Position numbers and translations under genes: made by a program | In this document: positions 17,731-63,002 of the stretch, one piece after another | How positions within the stretch are numbered: position 1 is the first letter of the stretch | Layout: each line of letters begins with the position of its first letter | From: Mobula birostris | Taxonomy: Eukaryota | Direction of reading: 5' to 3' | NCBI RefSeq assembly: GCF_030028105.1 | Contig: NC_092370.1 | Location: 94,446,969-94,510,968, forward strand | Length of the DNA: 64,000 bases | The notes under the pieces: generated by a model | Told to the model about the DNA's origin: nothing | Database searches by the model: none | Seen by the model: only the letters and a program-made list of their open reading frames with translations

Positions 17731-19508
17731 ACCGAGATGATCTGGGCATCAGTACCACTTGGGCAGCAGTTGAAAAGGGAGACATGGCTCAGGCAGAGAA
17801 GGTGAAACATGCGTCGGTCCCTCCATTACTGCAAGAATGGCCTAGGTTGGAGTTGAAGAACTAGATCTTGTACTGGGTCACATCACCTCCGGACTGACCT
17901 TGGCGTTGCTAGCTGGTTTTGCCCGAGAAGTATTGGAGGATTGCGTTGAAGTCACTTCATGATGATTCTGGACATTTGGGAGTGGAAAAGACCTATGGAT
18001 TGTTCAGGGACCTTTTTTACTGGCCCCGAATGAAATTGGAGGTCGAAGGATACTGCAAGTCAGGCATTCGATGCATACAGCGGAAGGCACTGCTGACGCA
18101 GGCGAGCCTTTGTCCCACCTGCAGAGTGTGGGTCCTCTGGACCTGGTGTGTATGGATTTCCTGTCAATAGAACCTGATGCCAGCAACACGGCGAATGTCT
18201 TAGTCATCACGGACCACTACACCAGATATGCTCAGGCTTTTCCTACCAAGGACCAGAGGGTGTCTACAGTGGCCAAAGTGTTATGGGAGAAGTATTTCAT
18301 CTCTTATGGCCTCTCCAGACAGATACATAGTGATCAGGGACGGGATTTTGAGAGCAGACTCATCCATGAGTTACTGGGCATGCTTGGAGTCAAGAAGTCG
18401 AGGACCACGCACTATCACCTGCAGGGTGATTCCCCGCCAGAGAGGTTTAATTGGACCTTGTTAGACATGCATCTGGTTCACAGTTATAACTGCACACAAA
18501 ATGAAGCTACTGGGTGCTCGCCATATTATCTGATGTTTGGGCACGAGGCGAGGTTACCTATTGGCCTTTGTTTTGGGACTGACGAGGGTGACTTACCCCT
18601 GAAAACTTATCTGAAGTTTGTGTCTGACATGAGAAGAGAGCTGAAAAGGGCTTATGAATTAGCTGGGTTCGCGGCTGCCAAGCAGAATCAAGGGAATAAG
18701 AGGAGGAATGATCAAAAGGTGAGGTCCTCCCAACTCCTGCCGGGAGACAAGAGTCCTCATAAGCTGGCGACTGCTGGGCAGCTACACCCTATGTGGTGGA
18801 GAGTCAGATGCCAAACCTACCAGTTTTCCGGGTGAAACCAAAGGAGGGGAATGGACCTCTCAAGATTCTCCATCGCAACCACCAGTTGCTGTGGGTCAAG
18901 AGGCGCAAGTAGACCCAGAGCCCAACTTGGAGCCCACACCTCGTAAGAGGACTCTGCAGAAATGGGGGGTGACTACCGGGCCCCCAACAGGTGAGGTTAG
19001 GCTGGCCCCAACCCCTGAGAGGAATACTGATTCGGAAGATGAGGACCTGGATGTGTGGTATATACTGCCTTTCGCTAACTCCCCATTGATTGGGGAAGAG
19101 ACTCCCGGTCCTTCTCCCATTGAGTCAGATGAAGTGGGGGTGGGGGCTATCTGTGGGCAGCCTGGGTTACAGTGGGACTCTGCAGGGTTTGATCACGGAA
19201 CAAAGGGCTTTGAGTTGCAGGTTGGCACGAATGATAGATCAGGGGAGGCCCCGCCAGGTAGACCAGAAGTATCCACAGTAGTGTCTGAACCTGAAGAGAT
19301 AGATGAAGGGGTGCGGAGGTCTCAGAGAATTAGGAGACCACCGGATAGGCTGGCCTATGTAGCAACAGGGGAACAGAGTGTAACCCCTACCATTTTCAGG
19401 AGCCATGTCACTGCCTTTTACACCTGGATTGGGCTTTGTGTTTTGCAGGAAGGGTTGGTGAATTATCTCAACATCATGAGGACATGACTAAATTTGGTGG
19501 GGGTAGAG

Positions 19509-21021: not shown

Positions 21022-21120
21022 ATTCTGAAAGTCAACACCAGCACCAAGCTCTACCATGAGTTTAGCCAATTCTAGATCTTTCTTTCTGCAGCAAACATGT
21101 AAGACTGTATCCCCATCATC
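21022..21120 (-). CDS. trpn1: TRPN1 ankyrin exon (DDGDTVLHVCCRKKDLELAKLMVELGAGVDFQN)
   Basis: 99 bp, phase 0, ttccag| ... |gtgagt; resembles NompC GD.ALH.ACRRRD.DM...LVDYG..VD.QN. Confidence 0.92.
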
Positions 21121-26999: not shown

Positions 27000-27104
27000 C
27001 TTCCGTTGCGTCCTGAGTTGTAGACCAGCATTAACACTGAGTAGTTCCTTGCACACTGCGACATTACCAACTTCAGCACTGAGAAACAAGGGAATGCAGC
27101 CATC
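27000..27104 (-). CDS. trpn1: TRPN1 ankyrin exon (DGCIPLFLSAEVGNVAVCKELLSVNAGLQLRTQRK)
   Basis: 105 bp, phase 0, tcatag| ... |gtacag; resembles NompC G.IPL.LA.E.GN...C.ELL....QL. Confidence 0.9.
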
Positions 27105-29355
27105 CTATGAAGAAAAACAAAGTGGAACAAAGTGCGATCACAGAAGAAGAAAAGACCGACATTTAGGTATTGCCTTTCATCCCTTCATAATACTTTTGTG
27201 ATGTGGTTACCATGGTAGTGCAAGAAGTACAGCAATTAGCTAACACACAGCAAGATCCTGTAACTATATTGCTGTCCTTTCCCAGATGCCCCGAGAAGCT
27301 GCTCTCTTAAATATCTGTGACTCTTTTAGCGAAGGTACTTCCATAGCACTATTGTGCAGGGAGTTCCAGGATCTAGATTCACTATTGTATAATTTCCGTG
27401 ACCTGAATTGGATGATGGTTAAGGGATAATAATATTTTTCAAAGCCAGTATACCATACAACTTAGAGGGGAGCTTGTAAGTTACACCATTTCCATCTGCT
27501 TGATGGGATTGAGACACTTGGACAAAGTATGTGATTATTACTGGAAAGTCTTTATTTATCCTTGTTTATTAAATTTGACCCAGAATACTGAGACTAACTC
27601 CAGAAACTACAGATGTTGGAGTCAGGTAGCATCTGTGGATCAACTAGATTGTTGATATTTTGGGTTGAAGCCCTTGCTCTGGATTGATGAATTGTCTCGA
27701 TGAAGGGTCTAAATGAAACTCTTAACCCAAAAGATCGACTGTCCGTTTTCCTCTGCAGATGCTGCCTGGCCTGCTGAATTCCCCAGCAGCTTTTTTTTTG
27801 CATTTAAGATGATTTTCTCACTCCTCGTCCACACTAAAGGATTTATTACACATATTCAAGAGAAAAGATAGACCCTTGGTTGAATATCTTATCCTGAAAA
27901 AATAAAAGAATGAAAATCAAATTTTTAAGACTATTAATTTGATCTATTAAAAACACCACCATTAAAATATTCCTAATAATCATTATAAATTAAAAATAAA
28001 TTGTTGCTACTAAATAATAATTAGGCATTGTTTAGTACCAACAATTCAGTTAAATCTATGATGATTATTAAAAATAGTTTAATGGCAGTTTTGACATTCT
28101 ATCCTAAATATGAATTTTCGTAAAATATTGCAGTCCTAAAAAGCACCTGAATATTGAAGGTGGCTTTTCAGAAGAATTCTAACTCTGTAATTGCTGTAAT
28201 ATCTGAATCAGATTTACCACCGTCTGGTTTTGGACTGGAAAATCATGGAGAAAATTGTTTTTGGTTGCTATTGTTAAATATGGGCAAGTGTGTCAGCTGA
28301 CGATTATAGGCACCTCCAGAAACTCAGCTCAAGCAATGTCATTTGAGTTGAAAACACTGCTTTCTTGTGAATTATTACAACAGCAATTAATACTAGAGAA
28401 TGACACATTTATGCAAAATCTTAAAGAAAGAAAAACAAAATAAGCTGGCAGGACCAGTAAGTTAGTTCTCAGGCAAGACCACTGGCTTGAAATCTTAGCT
28501 GTTTTTCTTTTGCAGATGCTGCCTGACTAGCTGAGTAGTTCCATGATCTCTGTTTCATTTAAGTACAGATGATTTGAGTATATTCAGTAATTTGGCAAAT
28601 GTGAAAGATAAATGAAATGCATCACAATTAACAGGTATTGTAGGTATTGATAGCCAGCCGGTGGTGTAGTGGCATCAGCACCCAGCCTTTAATGCGAGTG
28701 GTCCTGGGTTCGAATTCAGCCGGCTCCTCACATGCCTTCCATCGATGCTGACTCAGCCTCATAAAAAACAGACAAAATGCAAAAGAAATGGCAAGGTTGT
28801 TGCCCAGTGCACCACAAGGCACAGAGAGGAATAACAACTCTGTAGGTATTGATAAGTGAAAAGATTATCACATGCAAGAGATTTGAAAGTCATGATGATC
28901 AAGTAAGTTCTCTACACAGAGCTTTTCTTTGTCTTGAAAATCCTAGATTTCCTTGTAATCTATTTTTTATGTAAGTAATCCTCTCCCAGAGAGAAGATAT
29001 TTCAGCAGTAGGGTAGTCAATTATTGATCAGCAGAAGCTAGTTTATTAGCTGTTCTTCGTTGCAATGTTATACTGATGAACATTAATGAGGCAAATCATT
29101 GCTTTTTCTGGACAATAGATAAGAATGAAAAATTGTCATTCCATTACTATTTGAAATAAAAGATTCAAGTTTTCATTCATTGATTAAAAGTGTAAGCTCT
29201 TTTTTGAGAAAGAAGTATAGCAAGTTAACAGTATATCAGTAATATTTTATAAAACCAAGGACAAGGCCAGAATTTATTACACATTCACTATACATGAATA
29301 GAACCCAAACATACTTAGCTACGGTTTTTAAAGGTAAAGAGTCCCTATCTCCTAC

Positions 29356-29469
29356 CTTATCTTGCATCAATCGAGCATCTTTGTTTGAGGACCTCAGTAG
29401 CATCTGTACTATGTTGAGAGCACCACTGGGTCGACTGGCAGCAAAATGTAGAGGCAACTGATCCTTATG
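29356..29469 (-). CDS. trpn1: TRPN1 ankyrin exon (HKDQLPLHFAASRPSGALNIVQMLLRSSNKDARLMQDK), the most 5' exon recognised
   Basis: 114 bp, phase 0, tttcag| ... |gtagga; internal exon with no start codon. Confidence 0.9.
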
Positions 29470-30803
29470 CTGAAATAAAGACAATGAAATAGGCATTATA
29501 TAGAACATGTTAAAGAGGACACAATTTTCCCACCAATTCCCTGTTGCTGTCTGTGTCTCTAAGCAGAAGGCTGCAGAGTTCAGCATAGATATCTGGCATC
29601 AAATGCCAAATCTCAAATGTCTATTAAAAAAATTCTCTGGCATCCTTCTAAGAAAAGATGAGTAATCTTTGCTAACCAGATCATTACCTATTCCTCAGGC
29701 AATACCATATATACAAATTATACCAATATACAGGATGTTATTTATTTATTAAGATACCATGTGGCATTGACACTTCTAGCCCTTTGAGCTATGCCACCCT
29801 GCAATCCTCAAATTTAATCCTTGCCTAACCACCGGACAAATTACAATGACCAATCAACCTACCTACTAGTAGATTTTTGGACTGAGGGAGGAAACTCACG
29901 TGGTCATGGGGAGAACATACAAACTCCTTACGGGAATTGAACCTGGGCCGCCTGTACTGTAAAGCATTGTGCTAACCACTACACTACCATGCCACCCTAA
30001 TGTAAGAGGCTATAGAGAACAGTGGACATAGTCCAGTCAATCATGGGCACAACCCACCCCACCAGCGACAGCATCAATAGGAGATGCTGCATCTTCAGTG
30101 GGCCTTATCATCTAGGATCCCTGCTGCCTGGGTCATGACTTTGTTCCACTATTGTCAGACAGAAGGTACAGAAGCCTGAAATCTCACATCAGAAGGTTCA
30201 GGAAGAGCTCTTTTCCTTCAACTATGAGGTTCTTGAAACAACCTACCCCTGCTGCAGCAACCAAAAATTAAGGACCACCTGTTATGGACTTCTCTCTAAA
30301 TGTGTTTTGACTTGCACACGTTTTGCTTTGCGTAGTCTTTTTCCTCTTCACTGCCTTATATAATTTATGAACTATTCATGTATAATTTATGTTTTGTATG
30401 TTGTCTATATCTATGAGTCAGTGGTGCAAGCTTTTCATTGGAACTGTACTTCACAGTACTTGTACATATGGTGATAAATTTGACATGACTAGCAATATTA
30501 CAAAGGTAAAGTACTGAAGAAGCCAATAATCTGAAATAAAAATAGAACGTATTGGAAATGCTGAGCAGGTTAAGCAGCATTTATAGAGAGAGATAAAGAG
30601 TTAATATTACAGGTCAACGTTAATCAAAATCCTTTGTTATCCAACTGAGTTTGTAAAGCATTACTATATGCAAATTAGCATCTGCTTTTCATATAATAAA
30701 AGTATTACATTTCAAAAATATTTCATTGCCTCTGAAGTTCTTTGGGATGATGGAAAACATGCTATGGAATGCAAGCCTTTCTTTTTATTGCACTTCTTGC
30801 TGA

Positions 30804-30941
30804 TGCATTCAGCAGTCCATGGCATATTCACGAAACAAGGGGCAATCTATGGCAGTTGGATTAGCATGGTTTTGCATTCAGCAGTCCATGGCATATTCAC
30901 AAAACAAGGGGCAATCTATGGCAGTTGGATTAGCATGGTTT
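30804..30941. repeat. 69-bp tandem duplication, two near-identical copies
   Basis: tgcattcagcagtccatggcatattcac(g/a)aaacaaggggcaatctatggcagttggattagcatggttt repeated at 30804 and 30873. Confidence 0.9.
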
Positions 30942-33263
30942 TCTACGTTGTTCAAACAAACTGGCTTGGTGCTTCTCAATGGAGTCTTTCCTAGTTGATT
31001 TGAATTGGGAAACTTTTGAGCCCAGTGATTAGTTTGCAATGCACTATTGCCAGACATTACAGAAGAGGCAACAGCTCCAATGTGGCTTATGAGGGTATTT
31101 TTCAGGCTATCAGAATCATAAGGTCTTAGAGCTTGAAAAGAGGCCCTTCAGCCTACCAAGGCCCTGCTAAACATCCATTTGTTCTAATCTACTTTTACTC
31201 ATGCCACACTCTCTCCTCACACCCACACATGAGGGGCAATTTAACCCTACTCAGTCTGTGTTTATCCAAATACTTTTATATACAATCCCTTAAAACGCCT
31301 TCCAACAATGTATCCACTATTGATGTCAGGCTCACTGGCCTATAATTTCGCAGCCTGGAGCCTTTCTTAAACAATGAAACAACATTTGCTATCCTCCAAA
31401 CCTCCAGCAAACTTGCAGGGTAAATTCTATCATATTATAATCACCCTCTCCTAAGGGTTCCTTTACCTTAAGCTGTTTACTCAAATTTGGTTTATTGCAC
31501 AGCATGAAATCCAGAATTGCCATTTCCCTAGTGAGAGCCATCTAGTAGGGATACTGTACATACATTCCACATAACAATGTGTAGATCAACCGGAAAAATC
31601 AACTCCTGTGACAACTTGATTTTTTTCAGTCTATTTGCATATTGAAGTCCAACATTACCATTTTAACATTGTCTTTCTTTCTTCCTTTTTTAATCTCTTG
31701 TTGTTATGTGCACCTCACATTCTGGCTTCTATACACTGTATATAAATCCCACCAGGTTCTTTTGAGACAAGGAGGTGAGACAACTTTTTGAGATTAATAT
31801 AGGAAGTCAAGGCTCAAGGACTTGAAAGTAATATTGCAAAAAAAGCCACATAAACTCACACACAGTTGGAAGATACAGATTTGAAGTAATTGGTTAAGAG
31901 CCAGAGAGGAGGTGAAAGTTCTTTTACCCACTACACCCAGAATGCTTTACATGAAAGTCTGTTGTCACATGCTCATATAAGGACTTAGGGTCAACAAATG
32001 GTTTTTTATGTAAATAACTTTATTTTGTAATATTTCTGAATAAAGTATATTTTTGGGAAAAATAGCTCCTTATGCAGCTCTCTCTAAAGTTTGACTAAAC
32101 TTTCATAAAATCCCTTGAGGTAACCACTGCATAAAGATGCCACCTAAATTGGATGTGTTTCTTTAGCTGTTGTGGAAGTATGAGTTGGTAATGACTTTCA
32201 AAAGGAAATGAGGTTAGTGGTAAAGGGGAGACAATTGCAAAGAACAAGCAAGTGGAAATACTTAAGACAGTTCTTTCATAGAAGTCACAAGACATAACAA
32301 ACTGAATGCCCTTCTGTACTGCATTCTAAAGCAATTAGACTATCTGCTTAAGTAATAGCAACTTTACCCTTTTCATGAGGAATACACATGGACTGCAATG
32401 CATATTTTATATCTTTTCATCAGACATGCTGGATTTAAATCCAGTTCTCAAAATTGGGAATGCTGGAATCCAGTCTCCATAAATCTTCCCATTGAGCTGC
32501 CATTTAATATTAAATCTGGAACAATCAGCCCAAGAGCAGCTGGTAAAGTTTGCTGCTGTTGGTTTAATTGTTCTGTACTTATTATGTTCATGGAGAGTGA
32601 TTAACTGAAAAAGCCAATACACGGCTTCACTCATGTCTTTGTGTTGAACAAACCCCTCTAATTTGGCATTTAATTAATGATGTACTTATAAGGCAATAAT
32701 GGTGGCTTGTGCATTATATAGAAATAGGGGAGCAGTGTGAGGACAGTATTAAGTAGTGAGAGGTTTACTCTGCAGTTACTTGTGCTCTACCTGACCTAAG
32801 AAATATAGATATCACTTGCTGTTCAGGGGATACTGATTTTTTTTTTCTCCAAAAATACTTTATTCAGAAGTATTACAAAATAAAGTTATTTACATACAAG
32901 AAAAAAACATTTGTTGACTCTGAGTCCTTATTCAATAAAGGTATTTACAATAAAATTATGTGTTGGCTCTCTGTTCACTTACAAATGAAATATGTTTACA
33001 ATAAACCGTTCATTTACTCTCAACCTGTTCAGGGGCTACTGATGAACTTGCTCTACACAAAATTTTAACAAAATGAAGGACGAAAAGGAGATAGCAGATC
33101 CCAGCTGTACACAATTCCTTATAAGGTAGCGATATCACCTCTCCATTGCAATTGAAGCTGAATACATCATGTTGTCAAGACCTTACAAGGCATGAATGGT
33201 CACAAAAATCTAATACATCATAATGGATACCTCATATATTTAAGCTGTGAAAGATATTAAATA

Positions 33264-33271
33264 TATTTAAA
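33264..33271 (+). promoter_or_regulatory. TATA-like box of the Z1-like gene
   Basis: TATTTAAA about 60 bp upstream of the ATG; a second candidate tatatttaag lies near 33235. Confidence 0.45.
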
Positions 33272-33326
33272 CAAAGACAAGACGCTGGGATTTAAGAGTC
33301 AAAAGTAAGGTGGATGAGACACAGTA

Positions 33327-33491
33327 ATGAAGCGCTCTAAGCCAGTTAAGAAGACAGAAACTTGTTATTTACGGAGGCGGCACTTACGACGATTATGTCT
33401 AACCAAGAGGGACAGGTCTAAAATATATCGAAGAAGATGCCACATTAGAAGATTGCCAAAAAGAAGAAGAAGAGGGAGAAGAAGATGTTAA
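33327..33491 (+). CDS. Scylliorhinine Z1-like Cys/Arg-rich protamine, 54 aa: [54 protein letters not shown]
   Basis: Hand-translated, below the ORF-track cut-off; ATG...TAA, intronless; [10 protein letters not shown]...[19 protein letters not shown] pattern matches catshark protamine Z1 as I recall it; AATAAA at 33621. Confidence 0.88.
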
Positions 33492-33620
33492 GAATTGCTT
33501 GTCAGTCTTCATCCAACAAGAACCATTCCTAATGAGTTTTCTCAAGAAACGTTCACTGTTTGTGATGAAGTACTCCCTGAATTCAATACTCCTGCTGCTT
33601 CTTTCACTGAAGTCATTTTG

Positions 33621-33626
33621 AATAAA
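33621..33626 (+). terminator. Poly(A) signal of the Z1-like gene
   Basis: AATAAA 130 bp after the stop, preceded by TTCACTGA...TTG. Confidence 0.7.
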
Positions 33627-34686
33627 ATTCAAATCAAATAACTATTGTGTACCTTGACTCTAATGTACTGAACTGAGTTGGAGAGGATCAGTAACTTTAA
33701 ATTCCTTAGTGTTATCATTTCAGGGTATTTGTCCTAGGACTAGCATATAAGAGTCACTACAAAGAAAGCACAGCAGTGCCTCTATTTTTTTTAGAAATTA
33801 GCACAAATTCAAATTTACATCTAAAACTTTAAAAAACTTCTGCTGAGGCACAGTGCGGACTATCATGACAGATTCTGTCACAGCTTGCTATGGGAAGGCC
33901 AATGCCCACGAATGGAAAAACCTATAAAAAGTAGTGGATACAGTCCATTCCATCACAGGAAAAGCCCTCCCACCATTTAATACACCTACAAGTAGCACTG
34001 CCACAAGAAAGCAGCATCCACCAGCAAGGGCCCCCACCATCCACGGTCTTTTCTCTCTGCTGCCATTAAGGAAAAGGTACAGGAGCCTTACATCCAATGC
34101 TACCAGGTTCAGGAACAGTTATTGCCCCTCAACCAGCAGGCTCCTGAAGCAATGTGGATAACCACACTCACCTCAACACTGAACTGATTCCACACTTATG
34201 GACTCACTATCAAGGACTCCACAACTCATGTCTTAATATTATCTGTTCTTTATTTATGTGTTTGCACAGTTTGTTTTCTGTTGTTTTAAATTGAGAAATA
34301 GCATGGAATATGCCCTCATGGCCCTATGAACCATGCCATCCAGCAATTTCCCGATTTAATCCTCGCCTAATCACAGGACAGTTTATAATGGCCAAAGAAC
34401 TTACCAATCGGTACGCCTTTGGACTGTGGGAGGAAACTAGGGGACCCAGCGGAAACCCATGCAGTCACAGGGAGAACGTACAAACTCCTTACAGGCTGTG
34501 GTGGGAATTAAACCCAGGTAATCTGTACTGAAAAGCATAGTGCTAACCACTAAGCTACCACACCACCCCGTTGCACATTGGTTGTTCATCTGTCTTTGTT
34601 TTTATTGATTCTATTGTATTTCCTTGTATCTACTGTGAATGCCCGTAAGGAAATGAATCCTGGGTAGTATATGGTATCATATATAG

Positions 34687-35410
34687 CAGCGGTCCCCAAC
34701 CACCGAGCCGCGGACCGGTACCAGGCCACGGGGAAATGATATGAGTCAGCTGCACCTTTCCTTATTCCCTGTCACGCACTGTTGAACTTGGACATAGGGT
34801 TGCCAACAGTCCTGTATTTGTTGGGACATCCCATATATTGGGTTAAATCGGTTTGTCCCATATGGGACTGCCCTTGTCCCGTATTTCCCCCGCTAGGGTA
34901 GAGTGTTCCTACGAAACCTTTCATGCCGAAATGGCGTGAAGTGAAGGAGCAATTACCATTAATTTATACGGGAAAAGTTTTTGAGCGTTCCCAGACCCAA
35001 AAAGTAACCTACCAAATCATACCAACTAACACATAAAACTGAAAATATAGTGAAAGCAGGAATGATATGATAAATACACAGCCTATATAAAGTAGAAATA
35101 ATGTATGTGCAGTGTAGTTGGGAAGATAAAGGCAAAACCGATTTGTGGAAAAAAATCAACACGCACGCGCACACAAGTGCCCGCGCAAGGCTTTCATGGT
35201 CATGGTAGTCTTTCCTGGGGTAAAGTGTCCCAGGACTGCTAGTTTTATCGCTTATTTGGGGATGAGAAAATTGGCAACCCTTACTGTAAAAGACATGTTG
35301 AGGTGAGTTTAACCCTACTTGAATATACCTCCCCCCACCGGTCGGCCGGTCTGCAAGAATATTGTCATTATTAAACCAGTCCGCGCTGCAAAGAAGGTTG
35401 GGGACCACTG
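34687..35410. mobile_element. Non-autonomous hAT (Charlie-like) element
   Basis: TIRs cagcggtccccaacc ... ggttggggaccactg; 8-bp TSD ATATATAG on both sides. Confidence 0.88.
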
Positions 35411-35447
35411 ATATATAGACTTTGATAATAAATTTATTTTAAGGTTT

Positions 35448-37745
35448 CAGAATCAGAATCAGATACATTACAATACATAATAAAAATCTATAAAATACAA
35501 TAAAAATACATAAAATAAATTAAACAAGTAGTGCAAAAAGAGCAAAAAATAAATAGTGAGGTAGTGTACATGGATTGATTTTCCATTCAGAAATCTGATG
35601 GCGGTGGAGAAGAAACTGTTTCTAAGACATTGAGTGTATGTCTGCAGGTTCCTGTGTCTCCTTCTTGATGGGAGCAATGAGAAGGGGGCATGTCCTGGGT
35701 GATGGGGGTCTTTAATGATGGATGCCACCTTTTTGAGGCATCGCCTTTTGAAGATGTCCTCAATACTGGGGAGTCTGCTGCCCATGTTGGAAATGGCTGA
35801 GTTTACAGCTCTTTGCAGCTTTTTCCGATCCTGTGCAGTGGCCCCTTTGGAACAGATAATGATGCAACCAGTTAGATGCTCTCCATGGTACATCTGAGAG
35901 TCCATGTGAGAGTCTTTTGTGACATACCAAGTCTCTTCAAACCCCTAATGAAGTATCGGCACTGTCGTGCCTTCTTTGTAATTGAATCAATATTTTGGGC
36001 CCAGGACAGGTCTTCAGAGATACTGACACGCAGGAACTTGAAACTGCTCACCCTTTACACTGCTGAAACCTCGATGAGGACTGCTGTGTGTTTCCGTGAC
36101 TTCTACTTCCGGAAGTCTACAATCAATCAGGTCCACAATCTTACCAATGTTGAGTGCAAGGTTGTTGTTTTGACACTACTCAATCAGTTGATCTATCCTT
36201 CTCGTAGATACCTCCTGATCACCATTTGGAATTCTGCCAACAATACTTGTGTCATCTGCATTTGATCTGTGCCCAGTTGCGGGTGTAGAGAGTAGAGCAG
36301 ATGGGGAAAGCACGCATCCTTGAGCTATGCCCACGTTGACTGTCAGTGAGGAGGAGATGTTATTTCCAATTTGCATTTCTGTGGTCTTCTGATGAAATGG
36401 TCAAGGATCCAGTTGCAAAGGGAGGTACAGAGGCCCAGGTTTTGGAACTTTCTAATTCGTACTGAGGGTATGCTGGTGTTGAACTCTGAGCTGTAATCAA
36501 TAAACAGCAGGTGATCCGATGCCAAGTGGGGAACCAATGAGGTTGCATCTGCAGTGGACCTATAGTGGCAATAGGCAAATTGCAGAGGCTCCATGTCCTT
36601 ACTTAAGGCAGGAGTTGATCCTAGCCATGACCAACCCCTCAAAGCACTTCAGCACAGTAGATGTGGGTGATAAGTATTGAGGCAGATCATCCTGCTCGTC
36701 TTGGGCGATGCCATGATCGTCACCTTTTTGAAGTAGGTGGAAACCTCCAACTACAGCAGTGAGAGATGTCCTTGAAAATCTCCCACCAGTTGGTTGTCAC
36801 AGGTTTTCAATGCCCTACCAGCTCCACCATCAGGGCCTGATGACTTAGAAGGGTTATTTCTCATGAAAGAAATTATAATGTTGGCCTCTGAGACAGAGAT
36901 TACAGGGTCATCAGATGTGACAAGGATTTACACAGGTGTAGTTTTACTCTCCCTTTCAAAGCATGCATAAAAGTCATTTAGCTCATATGGAAGTGAAGCA
37001 TCAGAGAAATTCATGGTGTTAGGTTTTGCCTTGTAGGAAGTAATAACCTGCAAACCCTGCCAGAGCCAACATGCATCCAATTCCACCTCTAACTGCAATC
37101 AGAATTGTTTTTTTGCTCTTAAGATAGCCTTCCGTAGGGTGTACCTGGATTTCTTGTATAGTTCTCTATCAGCAGTCTTAATGTCACAGATACAGCCCGC
37201 AGCAGACTACGAATCTCCTAGTTCATCCATGGCTTTAGATTTGGGTATGCCCGGTATGTTATCGAAGGCACACACTCATCCATACAGGTGTTGATGAAGT
37301 TGGTGAAAAGTGGGGTGTTTTCAATCAGATCAAAAGATGAATCCCTGTATATAGTACAGCCCACCAATTCAAAGCAATCCTATAAATGCTCCTTTGCCTC
37401 CTTTGACCATACGTTCTTGGTCTTCACCACTGGTTCTATGGTGTTAGTCTCTGCCTATATGGAGACAGTAGAAGCATAGCCAGGTGATCAGACTTTACAA
37501 GGTGCAGGTATGGGATGGTATGGTGAGCATTGTTGGTGGTGGCATAACAGTAGACAAGTTTGTTGGCTCCTCTGGTTCCACAGGTGATATGTCGATGGTA
37601 GTCGACAGAGACTTCTTCACGCTGGCCTAGTTGAAAACCTGCAAAGACAAGGAAGGTATCAGAATTCGTTTCAAGACTGCTGATCATGGTGTTCAACGCC
37701 TCCAGTGCCTGTCTGACATTGGCCTGAGATGGAATATACACCACT
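35448..37745 (-). mobile_element. Rex1/Babar-type LINE, degenerate (EN to RT to 3' end)
   Basis: ORFs 35468-35905, 36176-36376, 36343-36642 and 37436-37786 carry Rex1 EN and RT motifs. Confidence 0.8.
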
Positions 37746-38690
37746 ATCAAGTTTGCTGATGACATTGGTGTCGTAGGCTGAATCAAAGGTGGTGATGAAT
37801 CAGCATATGAGGAAGACTGAAAATCTGGCTGAGTGGTGCCATAACAAAAACCTCTTCCTCAATGTCAACAAGATCAAGGAACTGATTATTGACTTCAAGA
37901 GGAGGAAACTAGAGGTCCATGAGCCAATGAGGTGGAGATGATCAGCACCTTTAAATTCCTCGGTGTTATCATTTCAGAGGACCTGTCCTAGGCCCAGCAC
38001 ATAAGTACAGCAAAGACAACACAGCAGCACCTCTACTTCCCGAGGCATTTGCAAAGATTCAGCGTGACATCTAAAACTTTGACAAACGTTTATAGATGTG
38101 TGGTGAAGAATATATTGACTGACTGCATCACAGCTTGGTATGGAAACACCAATGTCCTTGAACAGAAAATCCTACCAAAATGTAGTGGGTATGGTCCAGT
38201 CCATCACAGTTAAATCCCTCCCAACCAGTGAACACATCTATACAGGCCATTATCGCAGGAAAGCAGCATTCATCATCAGCGACCTCTACCACCCAATTCA
38301 GGCTCTCTTCTCACTGCTGCCATCAGGAAGAAAGTACAGAAACCTCAGGGCTCGCACCACCAGGTTCAAGAACAACTACCCCTCAACTATCAGGCTCTTG
38401 AATCAAAGGGGATAACTTCACTCAACTTAATGCCCCATCACAGAAATGTTCCCACAACTTATGTACTCACCTTCGAGGACTCTTCATCTCATGCTCTCGG
38501 TATTTATTGCTTATTTGTTTATTATTATTATTTCTTTTTTTGTATTTACACAGTGTGTTGTCCTTTGCACACTGGTTGTTTGCCCAGTTGGGTGTGATCT
38601 TTCATTGATTCTATTATGGTTATTGGATCTATTGAGTATGTGCGCAAGAAAATGAATCTCATGGTTGTATATGGTGACAGATTGAACTGA
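37746..38690 (+). mobile_element. Rex1-type LINE 3' fragment
   Basis: KFADD at 37749, then LFSLLPSGRKYRNLRARTTRFKNNYPSTIRLLNQ. Confidence 0.75.
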
Positions 38691-38699
38691 CCTTATTTC

Positions 38700-39362
38700 T
38701 TACATCCTTCACAGATATGAGGAGTAAAAATCTTCATCTAAATATGCAATGTGCAATCATAGTAATTTATAATAAATAGAACAGTCAATGTAATATAGAG
38801 TACACTCAAATTAGCAGGAGTTTATCAGTCTGATGGCCTGGTGGAAGAAGCTGGCCTGGATCCTGTTGGTCCTGGCTTTTATACTGCAGTACCGTTTCCC
38901 AGATGGTAGCAGCTGGAATAGATTGTGATTGGGGTGACTCCAGTCCCCAATGATCCTTCCGGCCCTTTTTACACACCTGTCTTTGTAAATGTCCTGAATC
39001 ATGGGAAGTTTACAACTACAGATGCGCTGGGCTGTCCGCACCACTCTCTGCAGAATCCTGCGATTAAGGGAGGTACAGTTCCCATACCAGGCAGTGATTC
39101 AGCCAGCCAGGATGCTCTCAATTTTGCCCCTGTAGAAAGTTCTTAGCATTCGGGGGCCCATACCAAACTTCCACAACCCTCTGAAGTGAAAGAGGCGCTG
39201 TTATGCCTTTTTCACCACACAGCTGCTGTGTATAGACACACGTGAGGTCCTTGGTGATGTGGATGTTGAGGAACTTAAAGCTGTTCACCCTCTCAACCCC
39301 AGATCCATTGGTGTCAATAGAGGTTAGGCTGTCTCTATTCCTCCCGCAATCCACAACCAGCT
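38700..39362 (-). mobile_element. Rex1-type LINE 3' fragment
   Basis: VERVNSFKFLNIHITKDL; HPNHNLFQLLPSGKRYCSIKARTNR..SFFHQAIRLIN. Confidence 0.75.
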
Positions 39363-40199
39363 CCTATATGAACTTTGAAGTACCCCTGACTGTGACTCTG
39401 CATTCAGCTGTAGTCCTAAATGGGAGTATCTGATGATTTTCTTCGGAGTTGAATGCAAAGAGTCACCACTGAAAGCCGCCAACTTGGCATCTGGTTGAAT
39501 TTCTGCAGCAGCACCAGTTGATGTGGAAAGGGCCACAATCACATTTAAATTTGGAAATAGGTGGCTTTCAGAAGAGATTGTGCTGAAAAAATAAACAAGA
39601 ATCTGGGTTTCAGATCAATCTATGAATAGAGATGCAGCATAGGATGAAATTTTGTAAATGCCTACAAAACAGGGGGACAATTCAGAATCATAGGAATGTA
39701 AATCACTATATGACATTACTATGGTGAGACAGGAATTGTTGGAGCTTTGGTGCTTTTAAATGCACAAAAGTTGCCAGGAGAGAGTGAGAGAGGGAGAGAA
39801 CAATGTGCATGCATAGACATCAGCGCATGCGCAGACAACATATCAGTATGTAGTGCTAAGGGGGAAAGTCATTGGTCTAAAAGAAATAGATCCATACATT
39901 ACAGTCCATTGACGAGAGTCCTTGATGAAGATGGTTTGAACCCAAATGCTGGGGTATCCGAAGCTAGATTTGAGACATGTTATCAAACTGGATCGGAGCA
40001 CAAAAGAAATGCTGGACGATATCACTAGTAGGCTTACTATTGAGCACAGAACTTATGCTCATGTTTTCCTTAAGTACCCAATTCTTGGCACCCAACACAT
40101 GATTATCGATTAATGAGAACGTCCTAAGCCCTTAAAGAGGCCATGCCAGCTATCCGTATTCTGGAGAATTAGAGTGTTTAAATCTCGGAAGCTGGCGTA

Positions 40200-42620
40200 G
40201 TTGCAAGCTGACCCCTGATGGCCTTGGTTGCTCAGAGAGTTGGTAATGGTAATCGTGAAAGAGATTCGGATCCACGATGTCTCTTTCTGGCACCCAGCAC
40301 CTTTCCTCCAGTCCACCAGGTATTGCTGAACACCTCCAGCACCTCACGAGTCCAAAAGTCTTTTCCCCATGAAGCCTGTTCCCCCTCAATAAACCTGGGT
40401 GGTGGGGAGGCGATAGTTGTGGGGCCAAGGGGCTGGTGCAGACAGGTTTTAATTCAGAGATTTAGAAGGTGGGGTTGATCTTTAGGGTCTTGGGGAGCTG
40501 CAGGGTGTAAGCCACTGGGTTTACTTTCCTCAGGATCTCAAAGAGACCAAAGAATTTGGGTGCCAACTTTCTAGATTCCACTCGGAGAGGCAAATATTAA
40601 GTGGACAGTTAGACCTGTTGCCCAGGCTGTAACGCGGATCGCAGACTTCTCCTTTGGCTTGCCTTGGTCTCCGCTCTCCGCTCTCCACATGGAGGCCAGC
40701 AAAATCTCTCTTGCCGTCATCCATTACTGCCTGCAGCATTGGACAAGTTCTTCTTCCTCAGGGACCCCAACTTCGGTTTCTTGCTCTAGAAAGAGGTGGA
40801 GGATAACAAAACTGGCACTTGAATAGAGACATCCCATGCACCGAGTGCTGTACAGTATTGTGGGTGATCTCTGCCCACATTAAATGGTCACACCACTGCT
40901 CAGGTCTTTCCAAGGCCAGGCATCTCAGGGTACATTCTAAATCTTGAATGGTCTGCTCCATCTGACCGTTGGACTGTGGATGAAACCCAGAGGAAAGGCT
41001 TGCTGTTATTCCTATCAGTTTACGGAGAGCCTTCCAGAAATGTGATGTGAATTGTTTACCATGATCTGAGACAATGTCCACTGGGGATCGTGGATCCTGA
41101 AGACCTGGTACAGGACAACCTCTCGTTCCAGTTCATCAAATTTATGGGACGGGGCATCTGGATTCTGGTTCTTCAACCGCAGTTGATAGGTCAGGATGAA
41201 ATTAAACTGGTTAAAAAACAAAGGCCACCTGGCCAGCCTGGAATTCAGCCTCTTGGCTTCCTGAATATAGGGCGGGTTTTAATGGTCAGTTCAAATGATA
41301 AAAGGGTTCTTGGCCCCTTTGGGCCAGTGAAGCCATTCCTCCAAAGCTAACTTAAGCACAAGAAACTCCTGATTCCAGATGTCATAGTTTCTCTTTGCCA
41401 GGGATAGCTGCCTGGAGAAGAATGCACACAGGTGCAGTTTGCTGTCTGAAGGTAACTGTTGAGACAAGACAGCACCTACTCTGATGTCTGAGGTGTCCAC
41501 CTCCCCAATGAAGGGAAGGTCCAGGTTAGGAGAAAGAAAGATGGGAGCTGTTGTAAATGGCTGTTTAAGCTCTGTGAAAGCAGCTTCTGCTTCAGTAGTA
41601 CAGACAAAAGGGCCCGTAGATTTCTTAGTTAGAGCCATCAGCATTCCTAATGAACTTCTGGTAGAAGTTAGCAAATCCCAAGAGTCGTTGGACCTGTTTG
41701 ATATTGGATGGTGGTGGCCAGTCTCTGACTGCCTGGGTCTTGGTAGGGTCCAACTCGAGATTACCATTAAGGATGATGAAACCCAAATATAAAACAGTCC
41801 TCACATGAAACTCAGACTTCTCCATCTTGACGTAAAGTCCATGGTCTAGTAGCCTCTTTAAAATGTCTCTGATGTGAGTGATGTGCACCTCCATGGACTT
41901 TGAGAAGATTAAGGTACCATCCAAGTAGACGAAGGCACACTTATGGAGAGTATCCCGGAGCACAGTGTTTATAAAGGCCTTGAAAACAGCTGGGGTGTTC
42001 ACTGGGCTGAAGGGCATAACCTGGTACTTGTAGTGTCTATTGAACGCCATCTTCCACTCATTGCCCTCCCTGATACAGACCAGATTGTAGGCACTCTGGA
42101 GATCTAATTTTGTGAATGCCCTCACTCCTTGGAGCATCTTGAAAGCCATATTCATAAGAGAAAGGGGGTAGCCATTCCTGGTCATTATGCAGTTTAATCC
42201 CCTGTAATTAATGCACTACAGCAGGCTCCCATCATTCTTTTGTACAAAGAAGAAGCTTGTGCCAGCTGGTGAGGTGGAGGGACTAATAAAGTCCATGGCA
42301 AGACCTTCCTTTATATACTCCTCCATGGCATTTCTCTCCAGGCCTGAGAGCACGTACAAACGACCCTGTAGAGGACAAGGACCAGGCAGCAGTTCCATGG
42401 TACAATTGTAGGGTCAGTGTAGTGGAAGAGTCGAGGCCTTTCCCTTGCTGAGAACCTCCTCTAAGTCCTTCTAAATATTGGGGATTTTGGCCGGTTTGGA
42501 TGGTGTTACCTCCTCCGGACTTCACTTTGAGGATGACTCCTGAGACCTTTTTGGTGACAGGGGTGATTCAACGGGCTTCAGGGTCCACAAGCAACAGCAG
42601 TGAGGTTCTTACAGAGGGTT
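40200..42620 (-). mobile_element. Degenerate chromodomain-bearing Gypsy (Tf2/sushi-like) pol without recognisable LTRs
   Basis: RT (FTKLDLQSAYNLV, YQVMPF, FVYLD), RNase H (EVDTSD..VGAVLSQ..CAFFSR..NYD), integrase (IVSDHGKQFTSHFW..SSGFHPQSNGQ), chromodomain-like YLVDW...WVPERDIVDP. Confidence 0.85.
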
Positions 42621-42639
42621 CTTGCATCCCCAGGATTAG

Positions 42640-43220
42640 GCTTCAAGGGCCAGCATTCCCTTCAGTGTCCTATCCTGAGTCCCTTCACTCCAGTTCCCAG
42701 CCCCTGGCCAAATTAGTTTAAACCCTTCCCAAGAGCCCTAAGTAAGCTGTCCATGAGAATATTGCTCCCAGGTGTCACTTTTGTACAGGTCATTCCCCCC
42801 TAGAAGAGATCCCAATCACCCAAGAACTTGAAGCCCTGCCCCCTGCACCAGTTTCACTGCCACACATTTATCTGCCAATTCATCCTGTTTCTACCCTTAC
42901 TGGTGTATGGAATAGGCAGCAATCCAGAAATTAGTACCCTTGAGGTCCTGCTTCTTGGCTTTTTGCCAAGCTCTCTGAATTCTCTTTTCAGGCCCTCTTT
43001 GCTTTTCCTTCCTATGTCATTGGTACCAATCTGTACCAAGACATCTGGCTGCTCTCCCTCCCCCTCCAAAATGCTGTGCTCATGATCAAGACGTCTCTGA
43101 CCCTGGCACCTGGGAGGCAACATACCATCTGGGTGTCCTGTTCATGTCCACAGAATCTCCTGTCTGTCTCTCTGACTGTCGAGTCCCCTATCACTACTGC
43201 TCCCCTCTTCTCCCTCTTTC
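42640..43220 (-). mobile_element. CR1 ORF1 (SGNH esterase) fragment
   Basis: IGDSTVR...CLPGARVRDV...VQIGTNDI...VLISGLLP. Confidence 0.8.
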
Positions 43221-44672
43221 CCAGGTAAATTTGAGGGCAGGGTGGAAATTGGAGGCAAAGTGGATGAAGTCAATGAGTTCAGCATGGGTGCAGGAAGCAG
43301 CACCAATGCAGTCATTGGTGAAAAAAAAAATAAGGAATTATAATAATGGAGTAGAATAATTGTGCCGTTTTCTGGGAATGTTGCTGTGATCCTTATTGTT
43401 TTTACTTTATATTATTGATTGATTTCAGGACAGCAGCTCTGAAATAATGACACAAATACATAGAATTTGCTGAGAAAATAACAGATTTAAGCTGTAAGGA
43501 TATGTCTGGAATGACCTAGCCATTTATGATTAGAAAGAAATACTTTTATGATGTTCATATCTCCATAAATTAACCTGCCTTGTGACTTTTGCACAAGAAA
43601 TTGCTGAATTTGCAGAAAGATGGGGTTGGTATTTAACAGAGCCAGTATCCCCTTGATTGCATGTTCCTTCAGTGCTAGCCATTATTTCCAGTTCAGAAAC
43701 AGAACAAATAAAACTATGGTATCTTGGTCCAGCAGTTAGTAAATCAAATTTAAAAGCTTTATATTATTCTTACTTTTCTTTTGTCTTCTTTGCTCTCTCC
43801 TTTATTACAACTTTTTTTTCTCTTGGTGAAACTTAACTTCTCCAATCAATGGTACAGGGATTGTGCATATAGACTCATTAGCAACCCAGCAGCGATGCAG
43901 TGACAGAGCACACACCACCAGGTTCAGGAACAATTACCCTACAACTACCAGGCTCCTGAATCAGCGTGAATAACTTCATCTGTGCACCATAACTATGAAC
44001 TGATTCTACACACAAACTCTTCAAGAACTCTTTACAGCTCATGTTCTCAGTAATATTTCTTATTTACACAAATAATTATCTTTAGCACATTGTTTGTTTG
44101 TCAGTGTACATTTATGAATTTTTTTTCATAAATTCTGTTGTATTTCTTTATTTTCCTGTAAATGCCTGCAAAAAAACGGATCTTAAGATAGTATTTGGTA
44201 ATATATACGTACTTTGATAAATTTTACTTTGACATTGAGGTTCAGATACAGTTAATATCCTACAACAATCAGGCTCTTGAACCGACATGGATAACTTCAG
44301 CAACCACTACTTTGAATGGATTCTAGAACCTTCTTGCTGACTCACTTTCAAGGATTCTGGAACTCTTGCTCTCAGCATTAGGTTGTTTTGCACCGTTTGA
44401 TTTCTTTTGCACGTTGGTTATTTGTCAGTTTTTAACTGTTTATGTATAATTTTCAGTAAATTCAACAGTATTCATTTTATTCCTGTAAATGCCAGCAAGA
44501 AAATGAATCTTAAGGTAGTAGTATATGGTAACATGTATGTACTTTGATAATAAGTTTACTTTGAACTCCTACATGACCATCATGATGACATGACAATAGG
44601 GCAGGATGCTGAAAAGTCTATAAAACTAGAGACTGAACACTTCCAAAGCGGTCAGTGGCTGAAGGCTGAAGC

Positions 44673-44789
44673 ATGAAGAGGTGTGTGCGCAAACGCAGGC
44701 GCAGGCGTAGAAATGGCAAGAAACCTTGCAAACGAAAATCAAGTACTATTGTCAGAGCACATCTTGTTCATCGGCGAAGAGCTGGGTGA
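44673..44789 (+). CDS. Truncated duplicate of the Z2-like protamine, 38 aa: MKRCVRKRRRRRRNGKKPCKRKSSTIVRAHLVHRRRAG (possible pseudogene)
   Basis: 44579-44783 reads identical to 46003-46207 (promoter, TATA, 5' UTR, 37 codons), then GGG TGA from unrelated flank; lacks the native 3' UTR. Confidence 0.7.
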   Translation: MKRCVRKRRRRRRNGKKPCKRKSSTIVRAHLVHRRRAG

Positions 44790-46042
44790 TTGAAATTCAG
44801 GTAAAATTAACTAGTTTGATGTCATTTTTTTGAATTGCTGTTCTTATTAGTGCTAATGTGCTTTAGCAAAGGAAATTTGCCATCTTTCTCTGGACAAGCC
44901 TTTATGTGAAATCTTTAATAACTCATATTTACAGTGCATGGCCCCATAAAAAAGCCCAGCTAGCCATTCAGTTCAAGGGCAATAAATGCAGGCCAGTCAT
45001 GGGATAATTGGCAAAAAAACAATTAACCCTATTTCTTTAACTGATACAATCATTCACCATTTGGTCCTAGATTTCCAACTGCACTCACTATGCTGCTAGC
45101 ATCACACACATTAGTAATGGATATTCACGCTGAAAGTTGTGGAGAATAATCTAACTCTTGGTTCTCCACTCAAGGAGACTTGGTGCCATTCCTGAACTTG
45201 GCTGAATAGAACAACTGGATAAATGTTGCCAGGCCATATTGAAGTAACACCTTAGTGACTTGCTTTGTACTTTGACACCTACTTCAATAATATTGACTGA
45301 GAATAGCAGAGTTGGAATTTTAATACCTAAAAAATACTCTCCATTGGATGGAAACAAATGTTTCATGCATTGACTTCAAATAGTTTAGCTTAAATGTAGA
45401 AAACACTAAAGCTGGCCAACAAGATTTTGCTGAACCATATATAGTGTTATACTATATGATAATCAAGAGAAATTCATGATCAAATTGTACAAGCAATTGT
45501 TTGGGGAGACCAGACAGGTACCAACAGAGCAAAGAGAAGCTTCCAAAGACTTTGATTTAAACTTAAGAGGGACAGAGGTTCTTTACTTCGAGTGAAAGGT
45601 ATGTTGTGGGAAAACTCAATTGTCTCTCGGTAAATTTAGAATTATCAAGTTAAATTAAATCCAATCAGCCCTGGCAGATAGGACACAAATTTGATTGTGT
45701 TCAACATTTCACTGGTGAGAATATATACATGGGAACCCTTTGTAAGTTTTAACCCATTGTTGTGTTCCAGGATAATTGTGATCTGAATAGAAGTAGCTTT
45801 GCACGAAATACCTTAAAATCAGTTATCTGCTAAACATATACAATCCCAAAACAACTTGGCCCAAGTGCCAAATATAGACAAATACCTTAAAAGGCAGTTT
45901 GGGAAAAAAATACCTTAATAGGCAATTATATGTTGAACATACACAGCCCAAAAAAAATTTGTGACAAAATGCCAAATATGGAAAGTAGCTGAAACCTGTA
46001 AAATCATGATGACATGACAATAGGGCAGGATGCTGAAAAGTC

Positions 46043-46049
46043 TATAAAA
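46043..46049 (+). promoter_or_regulatory. TATA box of the Z2-like gene
   Basis: TATAAAA 54 bp upstream of the ATG, with TGATGACATGACA (CRE half-site-like) about 35 bp further upstream. Confidence 0.7.
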
Positions 46050-46096
46050 CTAGAGACTGAACACTTCCAAAGCGGTCAGTGGCTGAAGGCTGAAGC

Positions 46097-46228
46097 ATGA
46101 AGAGGTGTGTGCGCAAACGCAGGCGCAGGCGTAGAAATGGCAAGAAACCTTGCAAACGAAAATCAAGTACTATTGTCAGAGCACATCTTGTTCATCGGCG
46201 AAGAGCTTCAAGACGTTGTCATCGGTAA
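46097..46228 (+). CDS. Scylliorhinine Z2-like protamine, 43 aa: MKRCVRKRRRRRRNGKKPCKRKSSTIVRAHLVHRRRASRRCHR
   Basis: Hand-translated, absent from the ORF track; MK.C.RKRRRRRR...CK..SSTIVRAHLVHRR.A.RRC matches catshark protamine Z2 as I recall it; TATA upstream, AATAAA at 46370. Confidence 0.9.
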   Translation: MKRCVRKRRRRRRNGKKPCKRKSSTIVRAHLVHRRRASRRCHR

Positions 46229-46369
46229 GAAGCTATGACAGATCAAAGAAAAGAACCATGTTTTGAGCTATTCGAGTACTAAAGAAGATGTGCACAAGGC
46301 AGACTGGATGAGGAAACTGCTTGAATTGAAACTTCGTTCTTCACACCATGTTCACTGATTCAAATTGAA

Positions 46370-46375
46370 AATAAA
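46370..46375 (+). terminator. Poly(A) signal of the Z2-like gene
   Basis: AATAAA 142 bp after the stop, followed by a motif shared with the S1-like gene. Confidence 0.75.
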
Positions 46376-47167
46376 AGCCTACAAGTACTGAGACTTGGAA
46401 AAAATATTTTGTTTGACTCAAGTTTTTTCAAATATAATTGCAGAATTATTTCATTACATGGTCAAGGGTGCTTGAATTGAAAGCGAAAGTGGTGCAAATG
46501 AACCTCCTATAGATGTCAGTCAAGAGAACATTGAAACACTCATTCTGTTGGGAGGGCATTCCAGGACTTTGTAGATACTGTTTCTATGCATCTGCTAGTC
46601 TATGACTAGATGGTAGAGATAATGTATGATCGGTAGGATTCACCATTCTGTTGGTTGAGACTGGTGTAAGTGCAGGGGGATTTGATGAGTGAAAGACAGG
46701 GAGAAGGTGTGAAAGACATCCCAAAGCAGGCCCATCATCAACCATTGTGCTGGTGTGGTCATTGCCATACTAAAGGAAATGTAAGATTTACTTTGCAGTC
46801 AAACCACAATGTAATAATGAACAAGAGAAAATCTGCAGAAGCTAGAAATCCAAGCAACACACACCAAATGCTGGAGGAACTCAACGGGCCAGGCAGCATG
46901 TATGGAAAAGAACACAGTCAATGTTTTGGGACGAGATCCATCACCACTCCTGATGAAGGGTTGACTGTACTCTTTTCCATAGATACAGCCTGGCCTGCTG
47001 AGTTGGACCACAAGGCAAAGGAGCAGAATTAGGCCATCTGGCCCGTTGAGTTTGCTCTGCCATTCAGTCAAGGCTGATCCTTTTCTTTATCTCCTCCTTA
47101 ACTACTATTCCCGGCCCTCTCCCCAAAACCTTTGATGCCATGTCAAATCAAGAACCCATCAATCTCT

Positions 47168-48210
47168 TGTCATGGCTCGGTCCGTGAAGTCCGCATTCTG
47201 GTTCACGGTCTGGTCCATCGACCCTTGCTCCAGGTTTTCCTGTCTACCCTGTTTCTGTTTCTGTTGAGCACTAATTGAGGCAGCTGATTCTTGTTGGGGC
47301 TGGCTGTATAAATACCTCCAGAAACCAGGGGCATGGCTGCTGGATTGTTCTTGTCCTTACTCCTTGTATCCCTTCCCCTCTCTTCTGTTTCCTTGCCTGA
47401 AGCCCTGCCTTGTCTTGCTGGTAACTCCTGCCTCGCCTCGCCTGTAGTCTTGTCTTGGAGCCACCCTGTACCTAGCTCCCTTCCTGTCCCTTGCCTCCGT
47501 CAGGTAGGCCAGGCCGTATTGCCGTTACCCTGCAGTGGGTTCTGTCCCTTTCTGTCCCTTGCCTCCGTTGGGTAAGCCAGGCTGTGTTGCTGTTACCTAC
47601 AGTTGGTTCTGTCCCTTCCTGTCCCTTGCCTCTGTCGGATAAGCCGGGCTGTTTTGCTGTTACCCTGCGGTTGGTTCTGTCCCTTCCTGTCCCTTGCCTC
47701 CGTCGGGTAAGCCAGGCCATATTGCCCTTACCCTGTGGTGGTTTCTGTCCCTTCCTGTCCCTTGCCTCTGTCGGGTGGAGATCCGCGCCCTGCCCAGGAG
47801 GAGCTTCAAGACCCCAAGCCTCTAGCTGAGCCTCGCCTCATGCCGAGCTTCAAGACCCCAAGCCTCAAGCCTCTAGTCTCAAGTCTCTGGTCTCCAGCCT
47901 CACCTCAAGTCTCAAGCCTTACCTCGAGTCTCAAGCCTGAAGACTCCAGCCTCGTCTTGCCTGCCAGCCAAGTCACGTCCTTGCCCGGTTCTGGGGTCCG
48001 AGCCAGAGGCAAGACCCAGATTCTGGGTCCTTATACAGTCTCTGGCTTGGAGTCCAAGCCCTGGTTCCTAACTCTCTTGTCCAGTCCTGTTCCGGGTTCC
48101 CGGTTTTCATGTCCATGTCCTTACCCTCACCCTGTATCCTAGTCCTGTCCCTAGTACTTCAGTGTCTGTGTCTTGCACTTGGGTCTGTTCCCAGCCACCA
48201 CCTTATGACA
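47168..48210. mobile_element. Solo LTR, about 1.04 kb, with an internal minisatellite
   Basis: Termini TGTCAT...ATGACA; 5-bp TSD TCTCT at 47163-47167 and 48211-48215; about five copies of a ~65-bp unit at about 47478-47775. Confidence 0.8.
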
Positions 48211-49016
48211 TCTCTGCCTTAAATACACCCAACCATCTGGCCTCCACAGCTGCATGTGGCAACAAGTTCCACAAATTCACCACACTTTGGCTAAAGAAAT
48301 TTCTCTGCATCTCTGTTTTGAAAGGGTGCCCCTCTATCCTGAGGCTGTGCCCTCTTGTCCTAGGCTCTACCACCATGGGAAACATCCTTTCCACATCTAC
48401 CCTGTCTAGACCTTTCATCATTCGAAAGGTTTCAATGAGATCCTCATCCTTCTGGATTCCAGCGAGTACAGACCCGGAGCCATCAAACGTTCCTCGTATG
48501 ATAACCCTTTCATTACTGGAATCATCCTTGTGAACGTCCTCTGGACCGTCTCTAATGCCAGCATATCTCTTCTAAGATGAGGGGCCCAAAACTGTTCACA
48601 ATACTCAAGGTGAGGCCTCACCAGTCCCTTATAAAGCCTCAGCATCACATCCTTGCTCTTGAATTCTAGACCTGTTGAAATGAATGCTAACATGGCATTT
48701 ACGTTCCTCACCACTGACTCAACCTGCAAGTTAACCTTCAGGGTGTTCTGCACAAGGACTCCCAAGTCTCCCTGCATTTTAGATTCCTGGATTTTCTCCC
48801 CATTTAGAAAATAGTCCACACATTTATTTCTACTACTAAAGTGCATGACCATGCATTTTCCAACATTGTATTTTGTTTCCCATTTTCTTGCTCATGCTCC
48901 TAATCTGTCCAAGTCCTTCCACATCCTACCTGTTTCCTCAACACCACCTGCCCCTCCACTAATCTTCGTATCATCTGCAAACTTGGCAAAAAAGCCTTCT
49001 ATTCGATCATCTAAAT

Positions 49017-49266
49017 CAGTGGTCCTCAACCTCCGGGCTGCGGACCGATACCGGGCCGTGGAGAATGCAGCGGTGCAGCGGTAGCTGGAATGTATCCAGC
49101 ACATCTTTAAGAAAAAAGCTGAAATAAACAAGCTAATTGATTAGGTGCCGCCCAGCAAGTAAATGTCGGCCCAGATCAGAGGCGCCTCCTAATCAATTAG
49201 CTTATTTATAAGCTGCATTCTTCGCGACCCAGTATCGGTCCACGGCCCAGAGGTTGGGGACCACTG
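49017..49266. mobile_element. hAT MITE, 250 bp
   Basis: TIRs cagtggtcctcaacct ... aggttggggaccactg; 8-bp TSD ATCTAAAT. Confidence 0.9.
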
Positions 49267-62996: not shown

Positions 62997-63002
62997 AATA
63001 AA
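62997..63002 (+). terminator. Poly(A) signal of the S1-like gene
   Basis: AATAAA 34 bp after TGA. Confidence 0.75.

Follow-up and report, generated by a model that had tools for sequence, protein, structure and literature searches.

A protamine Z1 orthologue in a cartilaginous-fish genome, its probable sperm-chromatin gene neighbours and the CArG motif in their upstream regions

Protamines, the P-type among the sperm nuclear basic proteins, are small and contain at least 30% arginine, and in eutherian mammals their genes are linked to that of an intermediate protein, as a Z1 and a Z2-like gene lie beside an S1 gene in the locus described here. In dogfish, the sperm fibres are reported to come apart only once they have been reduced and alkylated, which also holds for man and bull but not for trout (accessible part of PMC2110730), and since reduction is needed for dispersal, disulfide cross-links of cysteine-containing protamines may be supposed for this animal. 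A paper of 1985 on a cysteine- and arginine-rich dogfish protamine is cited in the accessible text of PMC10099843. For mammals, late translation of the protamines and their locking by disulfide bonds have been described (PMC8812575, in the sections accessible). The likeness between the eutherian PRM1-PRM2-TNP2 cluster and the present locus concerns cysteine-containing, disulfide-linked protamines there (PMC8812575, same sections) and a cysteine-containing protamine recognised from sequence alone here.

The present analysis covers a stretch of 64,000 nucleotides from the genome of Mobula birostris (the window). The Z1 gene found in it is an addition to a family already known and as such a fairly ordinary finding; the value lies in the context, namely a cluster of Z1, Z2-like and S1 genes beside or inside a TRPN1 gene and a statistically clear CArG motif common to the three. 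The full-text literature that we searched held no paper on the genomic cluster, no match for TRPN1 together with protamine and no account of CArG boxes in these promoters (in its accessible part, PMC3798277 uses CArG merely in a protein name). The original dogfish work and most subscription papers lie outside this coverage, and the absence of the cluster, the TRPN1 nesting and the CArG promoters from the literature is hence weak evidence of novelty.

The Z1 reading frame and its catshark counterpart

The reading frame at 33327-33491 of the forward strand runs from ATG to TAA in a single exon and encodes 54 amino acids (R20 K7 H2 C4), 37% of which are arginine. Its cysteines stand at positions 13, 24, 38 and 54, the last being the C-terminal residue, and with about 50 amino acids, a richness in arginine and lysine and four cysteines including a C-terminal one, the product has the form of Z1. 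A preliminary description had named a 54-aa arginine- and cysteine-containing frame with these four cysteines and with a tail, RRRRGRRRC, written almost entirely in AGA codons; the frame and its cysteines were found again, and the arginine codons of the tail are AGA in seven out of seven cases. With its 54 amino acids, the frame is shorter than the 60 that the ORF tool demands by default. The antisense frame of 77 amino acids that had been dismissed as spurious is likewise present (33399-33632, reverse strand, with a TTG start when read by table 11). It runs across the purine-rich tail of Z1, nothing was seen in its favour, and we judge it in the same way.

When searched with phmmer against 1,835,955,588 representative proteins, the Z1 frame returned one single match, scyliorhinine Z1 of the catshark Scyliorhinus canicula (E=3.6e-8, with 70% identity in the part that matched), which clusters with PRTZ1_SCYCA (P08433). 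The Z1-like identity proposed beforehand, for which similarity to Z1 had been set as the test, is borne out by this sole match, and the same search brought up no mammalian protamine as a homologue. The alignment with catshark Z1 is collinear over the whole length, with 69% identity, 34 of 54 columns invariant, an identical LRRRHLRRL core and one gap of three residues in the tail, and the invariant non-basic residues comprise P6, C13, L15, H19, L20, L23, D29, S31, Y34, H39, L43, P44 and C54. None of 5000 composition-preserving shuffles (mean 47.8, maximum 81) attained the local score of 169. In the same test, the two other arginine-rich proteins of the window scored at chance level against the Z1 frame (2201/5000 and 4030/5000), and the match to catshark Z1 can therefore be regarded as specific rather than compositional.

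From our point of view, one could still imagine that the frame arose by chance over an AGA microsatellite and resembles Z1 in composition only. Such an origin would fit the low-complexity tail, the fact that no Pfam family is assigned to the frame, the word-index protein search, which gave no candidate where the exhaustive search later found Z1, and the composition-adjusted BLASTP, which gave only E=5e-4 over 30 residues. However, it does not fit the outcome of the shuffles, the conservation of non-basic residues, the linkage to a confirmed S1 gene or the promoter motif that the two genes have in common, and with the phmmer match, the alignment and the shuffles taken together a chance frame is effectively ruled out, its probability being next to nil. 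On the sequence evidence, the cartilaginous-fish genome analysed here encodes at 33327-33491 the orthologue of catshark protamine Z1, and we put the probability that it is a working gene, likely for a sperm protamine, at about 0.85.

The two proteins also differ. Catshark Z1 has 51 amino acids and 16 arginines, compared to 54 and 20 in the window, and its cysteines stand at 4, 13, 26 and 51, so that in this comparison of two species only two of the four, Cys13 and the C-terminal one, are aligned. Catshark Cys4 has no counterpart in the window, a cysteine placed two residues before it stands in for Cys26, and Cys38 occurs in the window protein only. With only two of four positions aligned, the disulfide pattern would have to differ from that of catshark Z1. 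The shifts suggest that the number of cysteines and not their position is the conserved property.

The tail is three residues longer in the window, and the gap falls into the tract AGA4-GGG-AGA3 (codons 46-53, 33462-33485, forward strand), which is followed by TGT for the last cysteine. From codon 36 onward, all 11 arginine codons are AGA, compared to none of the nine before it. Slippage behind the length difference is plausible and fits the position of the gap between the two protein sequences compared, be it as an expansion in the window or as a contraction in the catshark.

Several signals flank the gene. On the upstream side there are two TATA-like boxes (33235-33243 and 33262-33270, forward strand) and two identical 10-nt elements (33161-33170 and 33212-33221, forward strand) that we take, by resemblance, to be CRE-like, and an AATAAA polyadenylation signal follows 130 nt past the stop codon (33621-33626, forward strand). 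No intron is needed by the coding region; within the leader, a sequence resembling a splice donor (33305) may belong to an intron in the 5' UTR. Mammalian Prm1, in contrast, has one intron (PMC8812575, accessible part), whereas the coding regions of the cluster have none. The ratio of observed to expected CpG amounts to 0.98-1.27 in the three coding sequences vs 0.30 in the window, the former values being inflated by CGN arginine codons. Z1 and the Z2-like gene resemble each other in a motif, aligned with gaps, that closes with AATAAA (33605-33627 and 46353-46376).

The exact protein sequences of Z1, the Z2-like gene, its truncated copy and S1 were absent from a collection of 15 billion sequences, and a metagenome scan gave 322 pattern matches without a relative among them. 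Since one relative of Z1 is found among 1.84 billion representatives, genes of this kind seem to be largely missed by annotation.

The neighbouring genes, probably for sperm chromatin

The window contains 492 ATG-initiated reading frames of at least 25 amino acids, and only four of these exceed 30% arginine, namely Z1, a Z2-like gene, a truncated copy of the latter and S1. All four lie on the forward strand and form one cluster; a Z3-like or S2-like gene or a decayed extra copy was not found in the window.

S1 is represented by an orthologue of the spermatid-specific protein S1 of 88 amino acids (62697-62963, forward strand; AATAAA at 62997), which matches SSS1_SCYCA with E=3.6e-31 and is 80% identical to catshark S1 (P13275). 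Its identity to two relatives from Callorhinchus milii is 66% and 59%, and these values point to an elasmobranch as the source of the DNA. While the S1 protein of S. canicula (P13275) and the other relatives have at least one cysteine in four cases out of four, that of the window has none. The two Callorhinchus milii proteins, A0A4W3KFX7 and A0A4W3HC88 (E=2.9e-18 and 2.4e-14), are labelled uncharacterized and could be named as S1 relatives.

Between Z1 and S1, a frame of 43 amino acids (R16 K6 C3; 46097-46228, forward strand) was classed as protamine-type by its arginine and cysteine content, and we assume it to resemble scylliorhinine Z2. It is accompanied by TATAAAA at 46043 and AATAAA at 46370. 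For its protein, the word-index search gave one word-sharing candidate and no match at E<=10, and the Atlas search gave nothing. Comparison of the window with itself revealed a truncated copy of this gene at 44579-44789 (forward strand), 205 bp of which (44579-44783) are 100% identical to 46003-46207. The copy sits 1424 bp upstream, spans the proximal promoter and the first 37 codons, and holds a frame of 38 amino acids (44673-44789); it has neither the native 3' end nor a CArG box in the 400 nt upstream of it. The identity over 205 bp points either to a duplication of very recent date or to a mistake in the assembly.

At the protein level, paralogy among Z1, the Z2-like protein and S1 is at chance level. 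On the 3' side, the Z2-like gene and S1 share an element right behind AATAAA (46381-46402 and 63005-63027, forward strand), with identity in 22 of 23 columns and E=0.003 in the comparison of the window with itself. It is possible that this element and the gapped motif of Z1 and the Z2-like gene are signals for 3' processing or translational delay, or traces of duplication. Three sets of presumed-RNA contigs, which are of unknown tissue and uninformative on expression, gave mostly repeat matches when compared with 27000-46600, and their depth over 44658-46600 is zero.

The upstream CArG boxes and their potential role

Upstream of all three complete genes we find the CArG core of the serum response element, CC(A/T)6GG, which was first seen as a palindrome common to the aligned upstream regions. 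Z1 has one perfect box at -210 from its ATG (33117-33126) and a one-mismatch copy at 33181-33190, the Z2-like gene has three perfect boxes starting at 45885, 45913 and 45972 (-212, -184 and -125; 45885-45981 overall), and S1 has two, starting at 62416 and 62514 (-281 and -183; 62416-62523 overall). The S1 promoter is partly duplicated inside with a spacing of about 198 nt, a second set of CArG, TGACG and TATA-like sequences lying at 62416-62443, and local duplication explains part of the multiple boxes within one promoter.

The number of perfect boxes in the whole window (eight) is close to the chance mean of 6.7, but six of the eight are gathered in the 300-nt stretches upstream of the three complete genes, which make up 1.4% of the window. 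When 1536 patterns built like CArG were tested, none but CArG itself occurred in all three upstream regions (binomial 2e-10), and none of 1000 random position triples gave any such pattern as strong; these values have to be read with the motif having been noticed before it was tested and with the control covering this one family of patterns. Within 400 nt upstream of the genes there are six more boxes with one mismatch. Across the six perfect boxes, the A/T core takes five different sequences while CC...GG is kept, and such varied cores between fixed ends fit selection on a binding site. From the sequence pattern, we consider the boxes to be probably functional.

An SRE-like element conserved in mammalian P1 promoters was reportedly described in 1993. 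In human PRM1, a serum response element is located adjacent to c.-190 (accessible part of PMC4607923), and this can be set against the CArG boxes at -125 to -281 in the window. If the boxes are indeed functional, SRF most likely, or another MADS-box factor, would bind them and, together with the CRE-like element and the TATA box, would switch the three genes on jointly in haploid cells. Z1 would then likely be transcribed in spermatids, and its mRNA could be stored and translated late, as is the case for mammalian protamines. At the chromatin, where histones would first be displaced by S1, the arginine-rich Z1 product would replace this intermediate protein on the DNA, with its 27 arginine and lysine residues neutralising DNA phosphates. 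Z1 and the Z2-like protein are predicted to bind DNA through their arginine runs, while the four cysteines of Z1 may form bridges within the molecule as well as to other Z1 and Z2-like molecules, and the disulfide bonds would finally lock the sperm chromatin.

Two other readings have to be weighed against a Z1 gene that is expressed under the control of its CArG box. One is that the orthologue is intact yet silent or of minor importance and that the Z2-like protein does most of the packing, for which one could point to the single perfect box of Z1 vs three and two in the Z2-like and S1 promoters, to the shifted cysteine pattern and to an identity with the catshark protein that is lower for Z1 (69%) than for S1 (80%). 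However, the intact frame, all four cysteines including the C-terminal one, the TATA-like boxes, AATAAA and the CpG content have been retained, and protamines are described as fast-evolving (PMC8812575, accessible part), which together make a silent gene improbable. The other reading accepts that Z1 is expressed and concerns the boxes only, which might be passive relics of duplication or serve some factor different from SRF, the resemblance to PRM1 then being convergent. Further flanking sequence is common to the genes, for instance the 23-nt 3' element that S1 has together with the Z2-like gene, and points to duplication; in addition, a study of the mouse Prm1 and Prm2 promoters lists TATA, Y-box, Tet1, CAAT and CRE elements and has, in the accessible portion of its main text, neither SRE nor serum (PMC2690471). 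Passive relics, on the other hand, sit poorly with A/T cores that vary while CC...GG stays, with flanks and proteins that are otherwise without clear similarity and with the six additional one-mismatch boxes. We therefore see this reading as possible but doubtful, and prefer that of an expressed Z1 gene with functional boxes.

The locus makes it testable whether elasmobranchs and eutherians acquired their cysteine-containing protamines independently or inherited them with one ancestral cluster, and whether the activation of protamine genes by SRF has been conserved over long times. One could speculate that the Z1/Z2/S1 cluster of cartilaginous fishes, co-regulated, nested in antisense in a TRPN1 intron and activated by SRF via CArG boxes that would correspond to the SRE of mammalian PRM1, dates back to the ancestor of the jawed vertebrates instead of having two origins, but at present we regard this as unlikely.

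The antisense ankyrin exons and the surroundings of the cluster

The mammalian protamine cluster lies by SOCS1 and RMI2, whereas that of the window adjoins what we read, from its exons, as a gene for a TRPN1-like mechanosensitive channel. Seven ankyrin-repeat exons in phase 0, similar to TRPN1/nompC, occupy the reverse strand between 74 and 29469; with boundaries read by eye, they are located at 29356-29469 (38 codons), 27000-27104 (35), 21022-21120 (33), 11567-11668 (34), 9269-9370 (34), 2021-2119 (33) and 74-274 (67). In a structure search with six of the exons, four list fruit-fly NOMPC (5vkq), at residues 195-230, 267-298, 325-366 and 399-470, and adding up the exon lengths places these four stretches exactly in register, the exons thus being collinear with residues 195-470. 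For the two others 5vkq was not listed (in one case at a cut-off of 1e-8). By whole-chain score, repeat-rich ankyrins or DARPins came before NOMPC every time. An Atlas search with an exon of this host gene gave generic ankyrin clusters, and one short contig of the presumed-RNA run X3, which is of unknown tissue and uninformative on expression, matches the ankyrin exon at 29.4 kb.

In TRPN1/NOMPC, the TRP channel domain comes after 29 ankyrin repeats. The window differs in containing only part of the ankyrin array; the channel domain was not seen in it and would lie past its start. The most upstream exon starts at a splice acceptor, and further exons must therefore lie above 29471. Between 29.5 and 64 kb, no ankyrin-like exon was recognised by motif scans, by profile searches or among 121 phase-0 donor candidates inspected by eye; the exon profile is insensitive, a leave-one-out trial having ranked first just four of the seven known exons. 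We hence infer that the cluster is rather likely nested, in antisense orientation, in a large intron of TRPN1. Be it nested or adjacent, the locus provides cluster coordinates and TRPN1 as a conserved landmark by which such genes could be found in the genomes of sharks, rays and chimaeras.

To the eye, reading frames that may be fragments of retrotransposon gag, pol and integrase and of LINE reverse transcriptase are present at about 14300-18900 (forward), 41290-42185 (reverse), 48400-51800 (reverse) and 54800-56400 (forward). Tandem repeats are found at 30804-30942, with two copies of period 69, and at 47477-47776, with 4.4 copies of period 68.
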